From assembly GCA_043821445.1 (NCBI GenBank), contig JBDRCT010000040.1, positions 26,745-90,744 of the forward strand: a stretch of DNA of 64,000 nt, read 5' to 3'. Source of the stretch: Candidatus Omnitrophota bacterium. GTDB lineage: Bacteria > Omnitrophota > Omnitrophia > Omnitrophales > Aquincolibacteriaceae. The notes under the pieces were generated by a model. It was given only the letters and a program-made list of their open reading frames with translations. It had not been told where the DNA came from and did not search any database. The number at the start of each line of letters is the position of its first letter. Position 1 is the stretch's first letter. A program made the position numbers and the translations under genes. Shown here piece after piece: positions 1 through 44,070 of this stretch.

Positions 1-1288
1 CCCTTCTGACAGCGAGTTGATCCTCGTTTCCATCATGTTCTCTCAAGATTGGCCTTATGCCCGGGAATTTTTAAAGGCGCTGAGGAAAAAGGCCCCACAA
101 GCTAAGATCTTGGCTGGAGGTGAGCATGTTACCGCTTTACCGGAATACAGTATGAAGGAGTCTTCCGAGATCGATCTCTGCGTTCTGGGAGAGGGCGAGC
201 TGGTTCTTGAAGAATTGCTGTCAAAATACGCGTTCTCCAAGTCATTACCGCAAGATCTGCCGGGCACTTGCGTACGGATAGCCGGTGAGATCAAAAAAAA
301 TCCAAGAAGGGAACTGATCAAAGACATCAACGTTCTTCCTTGGCCTGACTGGAACGATTTTCCTTTAGAGAATTATCTCGCCGGAGGGCACGGGTTCGGG
401 GTTAATCTCGGAAGATCGATGCCCATTCTTGCGAGCCGGGGATGCCCCTATCAATGCACCTTTTGTTCGTCCCATACGATGTGGACCACTGCCTGGCGGG
501 TCCGGACCCCGGAAAATGTGGTCGAAGAGATGGCTTATTATATTAAAAAATACAAGGTCACGAACTTTGATTTTTATGATCTCACTTTTGTCATAAAAAA
601 AGACTGGATCGTCCAATTCTGCGAATTGCTTATTGCCAAAGGCTGGGATACCACTTGGCAGCTTCCGAGCGGTACTCGCTCTGAAGTTATTGATCGCCAA
701 GTGGCTGCTCTTCTTTATCGGGCAGGTTGCCGGAATCTTTCCTATGCTCCAGAATCCGGTTCCGAGGAAGTGCTGAAGATGATCAAGAAAAAGATCAATT
801 TATCCGACATGCTGTCATCGATGAGCGCCTGCGCCGGGGAGGGATTAAGCGTAAAAGCTAATATTGTTTGCGGGTTCCCGGGCGAAACGTGGCAGCACTT
901 GCTTCAGACGTATTTTTTTATTTTAAAAGCGGGCTGGACCGGCATGGATGATCTATCCATTAACCAGTTCAGTCCGTATCCGGGAAGCGAGTTGTTTGAC
1001 TTTCTGATAGAAAAAGGCGAGGTTAAACTGAATGGGGAATATTTTGAACACCTCTCCTCCTATGCAAGCATGACCACGGCTCACTCCTACAGTGAACACT
1101 TGTCAAATCGGGATATTTTGATTTTTAAGCATCTCGGGACGCTGGGTTTTTACGGAGTTAGCTTCCTAAGGAGGCCTTGGAAGTTGCTCCGGGTGATACG
1201 AAATATTTTCAAGGGCAATGAGACATCCCGGCTTGAGAAGACGTTGCTTTCTTATTTAAAACGATTCCGGCAGGAGCCGGCGTCATGA
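1..1288 (+). CDS. B12-binding-domain radical SAM protein (class B rSAM, putative sugar methyltransferase); 5' end truncated by the window edge
   Basis: The frame is open to nt 1 with no upstream stop; the ORF track starts at a TTG at 17. CxxxCxxC motif RGCPYQCTFCSS. The N-terminal KILAGGEHV segment looks like a cobalamin-binding fold. Paralogs at 37188 and 42694. Confidence 0.75.
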   Translation, partial: PSDSELILVSIMFSQDWPYAREFLKALRKKAPQAKILAGGEHVTALPEYSMKESSEIDLCVLGEGELVLEELLSKYAFSKSLPQDLPGTCVRIAGEIKKNPRRELIKDINVLPWPDWNDFPLENYLAGGHGFGVNLGRSMPILASRGCPYQCTFCSSHTMWTTAWRVRTPENVVEEMAYYIKKYKVTNFDFYDLTFVIKKDWIVQFCELLIAKGWDTTWQLPSGTRSEVIDRQVAALLYRAGCRNLSYAPESGSEEVLKMIKKKINLSDMLSSMSACAGEGLSVKANIVCGFPGETWQHLLQTYFFILKAGWTGMDDLSINQFSPYPGSELFDFLIEKGEVKLNGEYFEHLSSYASMTTAHSYSEHLSNRDILIFKHLGTLGFYGVSFLRRPWKLLRVIRNIFKGNETSRLEKTLLSYLKRFRQEPAS

Positions 1289-1349
1289 ACATTAATTGAT
1301 GGATAACTAGCTCAAAAAAAATTATTATACAACGCAAACAAGAGAGGGT

Positions 1350-2126
1350 GTGTCTATGAAAGCAGTGATCCTGGCAGGCGGGTATGGGACGCGGTTGAGC
1401 GAAGAAACGGATGTGATCCCGAAGCCCATGGTCCAGATCGGAGGGAAACCGATTCTGTGGCATATCATGAAATACTACGCCTCTTTCGGCGTTCATGATT
1501 TTGTTATCTGCTGCGGGTATAAGGGGTATGTCATCAAGGAATATTTTGCGAATTACTTCCTGCATACGTCCGATGTCACATTCCATATCGCGTCAAACCG
1601 AATGAAAGTCCATCAAAAATATGCGGAAGACTGGCGAGTCACCCTGGTCGATACGGGAGAGAACGTCATGACCGGCGGCCGTCTTCGGCGCATCCGGCAA
1701 CATTTAGATGAAAAGCCGTTTTTAATGACCTATGGCGATGGATTGTCGAATGTGGATCTCAAAAGCCTGCTGGGCTTTCACAAAAAGAAAAAACCTCTCG
1801 TTACGGTTACTGCAGTGCAGCCTCCCGTCCGTTTTGGCGCTCTAAGCATTAGGAGCGGGCGTGTCCAAAAATTCCAGGAGAAAACCGCTGGTGACGGCGG
1901 TTGGGTCAACGGTGGGTTTTTTGTCATTGAGCCTAAAGCCCTAAATTATGCCCGCGACGACCGTACGGTTTGGGAGCGTGACGTCATGGAGTTACTCGCT
2001 AAAGACGGGGAACTTGCGGCCTATCAACACTCCGAGTTTTGGCAACCCATGGATACCCTGCGCGACAAACAACACCTCGAAGAACTTTGGCGCTCCGGAA
2101 AAGCGCCTTGGAAAGTCTGGAAATGA
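1350..2126 (+). CDS. rfbF: glucose-1-phosphate cytidylyltransferase
   Basis: GTG start at 1350. MKAVILAGGYGTRL ... PKPMV ... GGKPILWH nucleotidyltransferase motifs. Length (258 aa) and order upstream of rfbG/rfbH match the Ddh pathway. Confidence 0.9.
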   Translation: MSMKAVILAGGYGTRLSEETDVIPKPMVQIGGKPILWHIMKYYASFGVHDFVICCGYKGYVIKEYFANYFLHTSDVTFHIASNRMKVHQKYAEDWRVTLVDTGENVMTGGRLRRIRQHLDEKPFLMTYGDGLSNVDLKSLLGFHKKKKPLVTVTAVQPPVRFGALSIRSGRVQKFQEKTAGDGGWVNGGFFVIEPKALNYARDDRTVWERDVMELLAKDGELAAYQHSEFWQPMDTLRDKQHLEELWRSGKAPWKVWK

Positions 2127-42557: not shown

Positions 42558-42693
42558 CTTTTCTTGCCAAGAAGCTGTGGCATCTTGTTTATGCGAACCC
42601 CAGGGTTATGCTTCATGAGCAGCTCATTCGATTTTCTTGGGGGCGTAAGATTTTAGGAACTTATCAACGCATGAAAGATAGAATATTTCAGAA

Positions 42694-44070
42694 ATGAAAG
42701 TAACATTTATTTTTCCAGGGATCACGGACTGCGGCTTCAATGCCAAGCACGGCAATGAAGCGACTTTTATCAATCATGGACTCTGCCTTTTAAGTGCGTG
42801 TTTGAAAAAAAGGGAGCATGCTGTCGAGCTTATCGATTTAAGACGGCTTGAAGGTTGGGAACATTTTGAGAAGATGATCCAAGAAAAAGATCTCGGCGTG
42901 GTGGGGATCACGATGATGAGCTGTGATTATGACCCGGCGATGAAGGCGGCAGAGATCATCAAGAAGCACAAGCCGGGAACTCCGATCGTGGTGGGCGGGC
43001 CGCATCCTTCCATCGCTTCGGAAGAATTAAAAGATGATAACCGGGTTGATTACATTCATCTTGGGGAAGGCGAGGTTACTTTTCCTCAACTTGTGGAGGA
43101 TCTAGGCGCGGGAAAGCCAAGAGAAAGGATCGTCAGCGGCATTCAGGCAAATCTGGACCAACTACCCTTCGCAGACCGCGATCTTTTTGGAGGCTCGGAG
43201 GAGGCTTTTGTCCCTTATCTCGAAGAGCCCTTTGTTACGACGATCGCGGGGCGCGGCTGTCTTTATAATTGCAATTATTGCCAGCCTGCGGAACGGATGA
43301 TCTTCGGAAAGGGCGTTAGGCGCCGGAGCGTCGGCCATGTGATCCGCGAACTCCATGAGCTGCAGGAGAAATACCGGTTCAACAGTATGATGATCCATGA
43401 TGATTGTCTGACCGAGGATCCCGAGTGGGTGACAGAGTTCTGCCACGCATATCGGCAGGCGCCGCTGGGAAAGCCCTTTGTGGCGCAAAGTCGCGCGGAC
43501 CTGATTTGCAAGAATGAGCCGATGATCAAAGAAATGAAGCGCGTCGGCCTTGCTCTCTTTATTATCGGCTTTGAATCGGGCAGTGATCGCATGTTAAAAT
43601 TTTTGCGCAAAGGCTCGACGCGCGAACAGAATCTCCGCGCGGCCGAGATCTGCCACAAATATAAAATCAAGATATGGGCCAATTACATGCTAGGCCTTCC
43701 GACCGAGACCAAGGAGGAACAGTTTGAGACGCTTGATATGCTCAAGAAGATCAAGCCCTATCACTCCAGCCCCGCTTATTACACGCCGCATCCCGGAAGC
43801 GATCTTTTTCAGTACGGCCTGACGAATGGTCTGCATATTCTTAAAGGTCACGGAGCTTATCGTCGCAATAGCTATGAGCCGAAAATTGGCGGGATCGATT
43901 ATGTTTTTTTAGAAAAGATTCTTCGTGAATCCGTAGCCCTTGCAGAAGATCAGAAAGATATCAAAGGAAATGTCAGGCGATTCATTCCGATTTCGTTTCG
44001 ACAAAGGTTGCGGCCTTTTCTTCGTCCCATAAAAGTTTTGTTTGAAAAATACGCTCCTAAGAATCCGTAG
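42694..44070 (+). CDS. B12-binding-domain radical SAM protein (class B)
   Basis: GRGCLYNCNYCQP CxxxCxxC motif. N-terminal cobalamin-binding-like domain. Confidence 0.8.
   Translation: MKVTFIFPGITDCGFNAKHGNEATFINHGLCLLSACLKKREHAVELIDLRRLEGWEHFEKMIQEKDLGVVGITMMSCDYDPAMKAAEIIKKHKPGTPIVVGGPHPSIASEELKDDNRVDYIHLGEGEVTFPQLVEDLGAGKPRERIVSGIQANLDQLPFADRDLFGGSEEAFVPYLEEPFVTTIAGRGCLYNCNYCQPAERMIFGKGVRRRSVGHVIRELHELQEKYRFNSMMIHDDCLTEDPEWVTEFCHAYRQAPLGKPFVAQSRADLICKNEPMIKEMKRVGLALFIIGFESGSDRMLKFLRKGSTREQNLRAAEICHKYKIKIWANYMLGLPTETKEEQFETLDMLKKIKPYHSSPAYYTPHPGSDLFQYGLTNGLHILKGHGAYRRNSYEPKIGGIDYVFLEKILRESVALAEDQKDIKGNVRRFIPISFRQRLRPFLRPIKVLFEKYAPKNP

Follow-up and report, generated by a model that had tools for sequence, protein, structure and literature searches.

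Three families of B12-type radical SAM proteins in a mosaic surface-glycan island of an Omnitrophota genome

The 64,000-nucleotide stretch of DNA analyzed here (positions 26,745 to 90,744 of contig JBDRCT010000040.1, assembly GCA_043821445.1; hereafter the window) is a mosaic surface-glycan island, probably a hypervariable one, from a metagenome-assembled genome of the Omnitrophota. We profiled 57 + strand genes with Pfam and NCBIfam and found surface-glycan genes in near-continuous series, starting at base 1 and ending at about 62,900, with the substantial genes of the window lying on the + strand throughout. Among them are three genes for proteins that join an N-terminal B12-binding domain to a radical S-adenosylmethionine (SAM) domain: rSAM1 (1..1288, +, with its 5' end beyond the window), rSAM2 (37188..38642, +) and rSAM3 (42694..44070, +). 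Taken as a whole, the evidence inclines us modestly towards a reading in which three separate families of B12-type radical SAM enzymes tailor surface sugars from within a mosaic glycan island.

An earlier note, made from the letters of this DNA, had described three B12-binding radical SAM genes, each with a CxxxCxxC motif, and had expected no SPASM domain; both points were borne out. The B12-binding (PF02310, gathering cutoff 32.1 bits) and radical SAM (PF04055, E 1e-17 to 1e-19) profiles exceed their gathering scores in all three proteins, at 40.7 and 71.2 bits in rSAM1 (open reading frame [ORF] 17-1288), 60.2 and 71.5 bits in rSAM2, and 62.2 and 62.8 bits in rSAM3. The cysteine motif occurs once per protein (CPYQCTFC, CPYVCTFC and CLYNCNYC, respectively), and Pfam finds the SPASM domain in none of them. 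The rSAM1 reading frame is open at the left edge of the window, where bases 2-16 hold no in-frame stop and the B12 match starts only at profile position 54; the full protein is represented by the 100% identical P0121 (504 aa), which carries the B12-binding domain and whose first 76 codons lie outside the window. Proteins 100% identical to the three (P0001, P0121 and P0241) all derive from one Omnitrophota contig of 93,859 bp. The three share only 23-30% pairwise identity and are therefore ancient paralogs, so that the earlier term "paralogous" holds for an old relationship, with the first gene cut by the window edge. They are not recent duplicates: each is a separate, widespread, uncharacterized family found in glycan operons. 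In domain architecture they answer to the definition of class B radical SAM enzymes, while belonging to no curated subfamily.

Structures of cobalamin-dependent radical SAM enzymes have a G-x-S/T-x-X motif on the β3-α3 loop, GG on β4 and GE at the start of α5, and no histidine ligand to the cobalamin (PMC9204698). When the N-terminal 175 residues of rSAM2 were searched alone against the PDB, the only matches were TokK (E 1.1e-5) and CysS, with GTTIFTP, MGG and GEGE of rSAM2 aligned to ALSCYVW, AGG and GEGE of TokK. A MAFFT alignment places GG and GEGE in the same columns in TokK and all three window proteins. Across two family alignments, one with 41 and one with 49 sequences, the motif residues do not vary, and they map to β3, β4 and α5 in the AlphaFold models of rSAM1 and rSAM2, which show class B folds at high confidence (AF2 pLDDT 91.8 and 92.2); the rSAM1 of the window has Leu at the first Gly of the β3 motif, a position that is Gly in the family consensus. 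The earlier concern that the N-terminal domains might lack cobalamin-binding motifs was thus answered by passing PF02310 scores and by GG, GE and β3 motifs in register with TokK, and these motifs support a predicted binding of cobalamin by rSAM1, rSAM2 and rSAM3.

For all three families, the contexts that we looked at are without exception glycan loci. The rSAM1 family comprises 5250 of 8000 candidates scored at E <= 1e-30, with relatives at 45-60% identity in Cyanobacteria, Alphaproteobacteria, Chloroflexi and Deltaproteobacteria. In a metagenome scan, the commonest neighbors in the bulk of the relatives at 45% identity were short-chain dehydrogenase/reductase (SDR) and/or GT2 glycosyltransferase genes (22 of 71 loci, in most of them at position -1); other recurrent ones were further B12-type radical SAM genes (9 loci), PMT_2 (5 loci) and YfhO. 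In Spirulina sp. CCY15215 (L009), the gene of this family adjoins RfbH-like and other sugar-nucleotide genes. In one locus (L021, 1797-3539), directly upstream of a gene of the rSAM1 family, a 581-aa protein fuses an SDR epimerase/dehydratase to a GT2, which supports consecutive action of the two enzymes. A protein of about 394 aa with no Pfam match is the first gene downstream of rSAM1-family genes in 11 metagenomic loci (for example L071, 3041-4222, - strand); the window has no counterpart of it.

The rSAM2 family holds 397 proteins at E <= 1e-20, of which about 55 clusters at least 53% identical to rSAM2 come from Omnitrophota, Sedimentisphaerales, Zixibacteria, Lentisphaeria and Auribacterota, with Solidesulfovibrio at 43%. 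A search of genome contigs with rSAM2 returned only four loci, the genome of the window not among them. Two of the related loci, L005 and L006, share the order rSAM, GT2, SDR, methyltransferase, and L006 has genes for the permease Wzm and a Wzt with a Wzt_C domain upstream of the rSAM2 homolog; in another (L007), the homolog lies beside DegT, hexapeptide acyltransferases and a second B12-type radical SAM gene. The rSAM3 family (2026 proteins at E <= 1e-20) is found in L011 in the order Wzm, Wzt, methyltransferase, GT2, rSAM, GT2, GT2, rSAM, in the Nitrospinota locus L012 adjoining a Wzt with Wzt_C, and on a Methanoperedens contig (L013) as a tandem rSAM pair beside GT2 genes. Some members of this family are 612-660 aa long (P0283, P0295, P0334, P0359; L013, 8001-9893) and have a C-terminal extension of about 170 aa with a conserved R(I/L)DP stretch; relaxing the Pfam search to E 5 brings no match for this extension, which is possibly a glycan-binding module. 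A role of the three families in glycan synthesis is strongly supported by these conserved neighborhoods, in agreement with the earlier assignment of the enzymes to polysaccharide synthesis. The accompanying claim that three such genes in one locus are rare did not hold up: of the 39 related loci that span at least 10 kb, 8 have two or more B12-type radical SAM genes within 10-21 kb, and such groupings are common in these lineages.

The gene following rSAM1 begins a series that, together with it, forms a six-gene cassette in the order B12-type radical SAM, RfbF, RfbG, RfbH, SDR, GtrB-type GT2, all on the + strand. RfbF (1350..2126) matches glucose-1-phosphate cytidylyltransferase (TIGR02623, 432.9 bits against a cutoff of 300), RfbG (2039..3256) CDP-glucose 4,6-dehydratase (TIGR02622, 465.7 against 278) and RfbH, or E1 (3244..4587), CDP-6-deoxy-4-keto-hexose 3-dehydrase (NF011936, 699.7 against 423). 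With all three above their curated cutoffs, they are predicted to make cytidine diphosphate (CDP)-4-keto-3,6-dideoxyglucose. The SDR (4541..5491; PF01370, E 3e-40) is a probable 4-ketoreductase/epimerase of the CDP-dideoxyhexose, and the last gene (5493..6473, GT2_5493) encodes a polyprenyl-phosphate glycosyltransferase of the GtrB/ArnC type (PDB 5ekp, GtrB, E 3.5e-68).

The same cassette occurs in two unrelated metagenomes in other arrangements: RfbF, SDR, GT2, rSAM, RfbF, RfbG, RfbH in L014, and rSAM, RfbH, RfbF, RfbG, SDR, GT2 in L022. The cassette SDRs of these loci are 38% and 35% identical to that of the window, and the GT2 proteins 55% and 51% identical. Partial cassettes are present in L020, L008 and L077, and in L002 a different B12-type radical SAM gene is lodged between RfbG and RfbH. 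That the gene content is kept while the order changes is good evidence for a common pathway. In that pathway, rSAM1 would modify CDP-4-keto-3,6-dideoxyglucose, or a lipid-linked form of it, by radical chemistry; the SDR would then reduce the 4-keto group, GT2_5493 would load the sugar onto undecaprenyl phosphate, and a GT-C enzyme (PMT_2 or DUF2079) would add it to the glycan in the periplasm. We propose tentatively, and with appreciably less assurance than the overall reading, that enzymes of the rSAM1 type convert a CDP- or undecaprenyl-phosphate-linked 3,6-dideoxyhexose into an undescribed sugar displayed on the cell surface by a Gtr-like GT2/GT-C pair; a C-alkylated dideoxyhexose or a chain-extended trideoxyheptose would be examples of such a product. 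In an L014-type cassette (L010, 12945-17563), the rSAM and RfbFGH genes are followed by a DmpF/DmpG-like aldehyde dehydrogenase and aldolase, an SDR and a thiamine diphosphate (ThDP) enzyme, a gene set resembling that for the YerE-type two-carbon branching of 3,6-dideoxyhexoses (yersiniose).

Enzymes of the GtrB/ArnC type load a sugar onto undecaprenyl phosphate, and the Gtr, Arn and CsbB/YfhO systems carry out periplasmic glycosylation. GT2_5493 aligns to GtrB over residues 8-311 (28-329 of 5ekp) and to ArnC over its full length (E 1e-34), and it has the pair of C-terminal transmembrane (TM) helices (234-253 and 266-294) that is characteristic of polyprenyl-phosphate glycosyltransferases. A second protein of this type, GT2_33339 (33339..34349, +), matches the ArnC model with 180.6 bits and PgfS with 163 bits, also over the full length, and likewise ends in two TM helices (225-264 and 268-291). 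On the same strand are three proteins of the GT-C type with 5-12 predicted TM segments: a PMT_2 membrane glycosyltransferase (14465..16486; PF13231, 11 TM segments), which is a candidate periplasmic transferase and recurs beside genes of the rSAM1 family; a GT-C-like DUF2079 membrane protein (16492..18186; PF09852, E 3.5e-62); and a YfhO-type glycosyltransferase (38738..41482; PF09586, 12 TM segments). Since both the rSAM1 and the rSAM2 module have a GtrB-type GT2 and GT-C genes, rSAM1 and rSAM2 probably tailor deoxysugars that, by analogy with the known systems, are first loaded onto undecaprenyl phosphate and then, once flipped, attached to a glycan in the periplasm. The PMT_2 and DUF2079 genes are adjoined by genes for an SGNH/AlgX-like protein (12583-13677) and a membrane protein of the CDP-alcohol phosphatidyltransferase family (13596-14480), which hint at O-acetyl and phospho-alcohol decoration of the glycan.

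The rSAM2 module contains three methyltransferase genes, GT2_33339, a WecE-type 4-aminotransferase, rSAM2 and YfhO. MT2 (32666..33313), MT3 (34285..35163) and MT4 (35182..36054) are class I methyltransferases on the + strand by Pfam; homologs of MT2 accompany rSAM2 homologs (42% identity in L006, 39% in L005), and MT4 has an N-terminal zinc ribbon of the form CxxC…CxxC. The transaminase gene (36051..37184, +) matches the WecE family of dTDP-4-amino-4,6-dideoxyhexose transaminases (NF008687, 586.6 bits against a cutoff of 375). MT4 shares 4 nt with the transaminase gene, whose end lies 3 nt from the start of rSAM2; rSAM2 is thus translationally coupled to the transaminase and linked to a 4-amino-4,6-dideoxyhexose. 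The module would follow the same logic as the rSAM1 cassette, from a modified deoxysugar through undecaprenyl phosphate to a periplasmic GT-C enzyme.

The rSAM3 gene lies between a cytoplasmic GT2 (41559..42557, +; NodC/PgaC-like, with no TM segment predicted) and a fragment of RgpF. This fragment, the ORF 44288-44968 directly after rSAM3, covers only the last ~180 of 503 positions of the RgpF (rhamnan synthesis) profile and is probably the remnant of a truncated gene. In the same region, Wzm (29048..29857, +; ABC-2 permease, PF01061) is followed by the ATPase Wzt (29854..31077, +; PF00005), whose C-terminal extension, pointed out in the earlier note, is indeed a Wzt_C glycan-binding domain (PF14524, E 5e-19), and rSAM3 may act on the polymer exported by this ATP-binding cassette (ABC) system or on its precursors. 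Next to Wzt are a protein of the type I phosphodiesterase/alkaline phosphatase (AlkP) superfamily (31044..32591, +; PF01663, E 1e-32; no NCBIfam match) and MT2. With MT1 (22103..22972, +), the window thus has the four class I SAM methyltransferases counted earlier (Methyltransf_11/12/23/25/31, E 1e-13 to 1e-24), the third starting at 34285 and not at 34330. NCBIfam places none of the four in a curated family, and PF08421 and PF08484, the domains of the canonical nucleoside diphosphate (NDP)-hexose C-methyltransferases of the TylC3/TcaB9 type, are absent from MT1-MT4 at E <= 0.01, including MT4 despite its ribbon, so that any prediction of C-methyl groups rests on the radical SAM proteins.

It had been suggested that Wzt_C reads a methyl or phosphate cap, and the methyltransferases, possibly with rSAM3, could build such a cap at the non-reducing end to stop chain growth, as WbdD does in the model of Escherichia coli O8/O9a. 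The direct succession of Wzt, the phosphodiesterase-family gene and MT2 fits this, as do the methyltransferases found directly after Wzt in L006 and L011 and the rSAM3 homolog next to a Wzt_C-bearing Wzt in L012. On the other side, we found no WbdD-like kinase or coiled-coil ruler in the window, and each of the methyltransferases has a single domain and a length of 215-292 aa. The modules of rSAM1 and rSAM2 moreover end in GtrB-type GT2 and GT-C genes, implying that their sugars are added after export, and sugars added in this way cannot be a cap signal read by Wzt in the cytoplasm. A cap is therefore possible for the small methyltransferases near Wzt and a poor fit to the sugars of rSAM1 and rSAM2; as an account of the methyltransferases and rSAM3 we regard it as unlikely.

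The earlier description of the region as one polysaccharide locus is right as to glycan context and has to be modified as to unity. Genes unrelated to glycan synthesis interrupt the series: two AbiEi/AbiEii toxin-antitoxin modules (18689-20351 and 26769-28018), a PIN-domain gene (20759-21157), two DUF4143/AAA_14 ATPase genes (46358-47551 and 49849-51012) and an SNase-domain gene (48500-49588). The ATPase pair brackets the SNase-domain gene together with a GT2 gene, and the ATPases and SNase gene look like mobile or defense cargo dividing the glycan genes; homologs of the first AbiE pair, at 46-53% identity, occur in L004. rSAM2 and rSAM3 stand in one gene run (28142-46229), whereas rSAM1 is 36 kb away in a different run, with both AbiE modules and the PIN gene in between. 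GC content is 0.45-0.49 over 32-48 kb, the rSAM2/rSAM3 module, against 0.53-0.57 beyond 48 kb, a shift that fits horizontal exchange or hypervariability of the cassette, and a recent preprint describes polysaccharide cassettes as hypervariable regions of Omnitrophota genomes. Together the interruptions, the GC dip and the preprint lead us to regard the window as a mosaic island and not as a single locus.

Such an island could also serve as a hypervariable dumping ground in which the radical SAM enzymes act on lipids, cofactors or peptides instead of glycans. The unrelated cargo just described and the presence of lipid and cofactor enzymes among the best partial NCBIfam matches speak for this view. 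It is very improbable in our judgment, given that the glycan neighbors are kept across several phyla and in an archaeon, that the six-gene cassette persists through shuffling of gene order, and that rSAM2 is translationally coupled to WecE.

Two further features of the island touch its glycan genes. A carbamoyltransferase gene followed by one for an SxtJ-family membrane protein (51280-53618) lies just ahead of a heptosyltransferase-like GT9 gene and a GT4 gene, and the pair suggests a carbamoylated glycan or core. Among glycosyltransferase genes, the ORF 56214-56651 matches the family of 23S rRNA intervening-sequence proteins (PF05635).

Several results weigh against the proposed tailoring of surface sugars by these enzymes, some concerning the pathway and others the reaction. 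For the pathway, no FAD/NAD_binding_1 reductase domain, and hence no RfbI-type [2Fe-2S] flavin reductase (E3), was found among the 57 + strand genes scanned; an E3-type reductase is present in the homologous cassette of L008, and that of the present genome may be encoded elsewhere. We considered whether rSAM1 substitutes for E3 and rejected this, as L008 carries both. No GtrA-type flippase was found among the genes scanned, a scan that covered neither ORFs below 100 aa nor most small ORFs. Most rSAM1 relatives at 45% identity have no Rfb genes nearby, which confines the dideoxyhexose link to a subclade. An NDP-sugar, a lipid-linked sugar and the polymer are each possible as the level at which the substrate is modified.

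For the reaction, none of the three proteins reaches the NCBIfam cutoff of a curated class B subfamily, and methylation thus has no direct support from this side. The models compared were HpnJ, BchE, HpnR, PhpK, Sden_1168, KedN5, TsrM, MgmA/MJ_0865, BzaD, ladderane, ApyD and AprD4; the best scores were 132 bits for rSAM1, 202 for rSAM2 and 139 for rSAM3, against curated cutoffs of 251-775. The top partial matches mix methylases (Sden_1168, HpnR, PhpK) with non-methylases (HpnJ, BchE), and in PDB sequence searches all three proteins match best to AprD4, a diol dehydratase of sugars that does not methylate. The window proteins lack Trp76 and Trp215 of TokK. In Foldseek searches of the PDB, the AF2 models of rSAM1 and rSAM2 gave similar TM-scores (0.59-0.70) to AprD4, TsrM, MgmA, TokK, CysS and OxsB, and the predicted folds of these two proteins fail to separate methylases from AprD4 or OxsB.

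One explanation of these matches is that the enzymes tailor sugars without methylating them, using a 5'-deoxyadenosyl radical with cobalamin optional, for instance by AprD4-like deoxygenation or dehydration, by OxsB- or HpnJ-like ring contraction or carbocycle formation, or by epimerization of a deoxysugar. The place of AprD4 among the top structural matches (TMq 0.67-0.70), next to its rank in sequence searches, favors this, as do the partial matches to HpnJ and BchE, and the substrate of HpnJ, a lipid-linked hexosamine placed by a GT2, recalls the GT2 adjacency of the window enzymes. The alignments with AprD4 are limited to the radical SAM core, however, and the N-terminal domain of rSAM2 alone retrieves only the cobalamin-dependent methylases TokK and CysS. 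The GG, GE and β3-loop motifs are conserved, and the models of the non-methylating subfamilies raised as a caveat in the earlier note (HpnJ, BchE, AprD4 and ladderane) all score far below cutoff. Ring contraction of a lipid-linked sugar in the manner of HpnJ we rate as unlikely, because the resulting carbasugar phosphate would presumably be unable to serve as a glycosyl donor for the adjoining GtrB/GT-C pair. Taken together, sugar tailoring without methylation is a minority possibility, more probable than a cap signal. Methylation of an unactivated sugar carbon, the reaction proposed in the earlier note, is plausible in that the cobalamin architecture and the glycan role hold, while the distance of the proteins to each of the curated methylating subfamilies is equally large; we would name C-methylation as the likeliest single reaction, at a confidence just short of even.

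What is new here is the conserved rSAM1 cassette and the route through undecaprenyl phosphate and GT-C enzymes. Three large families, of hundreds to thousands of members, are tied to glycan operons in Omnitrophota, Planctomycetota, Nitrospinota, Desulfobacterota, Cyanobacteria and Methanoperedens, which suggests that microbial surfaces carry a level of sugar chemistry not yet explored. If our reading is true, B12-dependent radical chemistry would contribute commonly, and so far unnoticed, to the diversity of surface glycans among uncultured anaerobic bacteria and archaea, and some organisms would need B12 to build their surface antigens. As a small system for testing, the six-gene cassette has the advantage of a well-understood precursor, CDP-4-keto-3,6-dideoxyglucose, with which routine assays could assign a function to the first enzyme of this kind.

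Most of what is known of class B radical SAM enzymes comes from the pathways of antibiotics, cofactors, lipids and peptides. In the full-text literature, with incomplete coverage of subscription journals, we found no characterized link of cobalamin-dependent radical SAM enzymes to the synthesis of O-antigen, capsule, polysaccharide or dideoxyhexose. Among characterized enzymes, those closest in function are GenK and GenD1, Fom3, AprD4 and HpnJ. GenK and GenD1 of gentamicin synthesis and their kin are class B radical SAM enzymes that C-methylate sugars in aminoglycoside pathways. Compared by description only, they share with the window proteins the B12-binding and radical SAM core, and they act on a sugar ring; they differ in working on free pseudo-oligosaccharide antibiotics of actinomycete secondary metabolism, whereas the window enzymes sit in surface-glycan operons with NDP-sugar genes, GtrB-type GT2 and GT-C. 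The cobalamin-dependent iterative C-methylases TokK and CysS (PDB 7kdx and 9n1b) have their GG, GEGE and β3-loop motifs in register with ours, but identity is 16-20%, the window proteins, shorter by about 150-200 aa, lack the large C-terminal domain, and the substrates of TokK and CysS, a carbapenem and a polyketide ether, are different. AprD4, a radical SAM 1,2-diol dehydratase (PDB 6fd2), is of similar size and acts on an aminosugar, with E values of 1.6e-22 to 4.7e-11; the match covers the radical SAM core, the NF033070 scores of 44-87 bits compare with a cutoff of 500, and AprD4 does not use cobalamin, in contrast to the conserved cobalamin motifs of the window proteins.

Fom3 of fosfomycin synthesis, a class B methylase of cytidylylated 2-hydroxyethylphosphonate, provides by description a precedent for a CMP-linked substrate, such as a CDP-dideoxyhexose would be, although its substrate is a phosphonate and not a sugar. 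HpnJ, which forms the cyclitol ether of hopanoids together with the GT2 HpnI and HpnK, is a B12-type radical SAM enzyme working on a lipid-linked hexosamine and is the top partial NCBIfam match of rSAM1 and rSAM3. Its differences are scores of 132-157 bits against a cutoff of 577.6, a window without hopanoid genes, and a ring contraction that would abolish the ability to act as a glycosyl donor. For export, the window resembles the ABC-dependent O-polysaccharides of the E. coli O8/O9a type in having Wzm and a Wzt with a C-terminal carbohydrate-binding domain. As to periplasmic glycosylation, the known Gtr (GtrA/B/C), Arn (ArnC/ArnT) and CsbB/YfhO systems transfer glucose, N-acetylglucosamine (GlcNAc) or 4-amino-4-deoxyarabinose (Ara4N) without a radical SAM partner, whereas the window, which has such partners, shares with them full-length GtrB/ArnC homologs with two C-terminal TM helices and proteins of the GT-C type.

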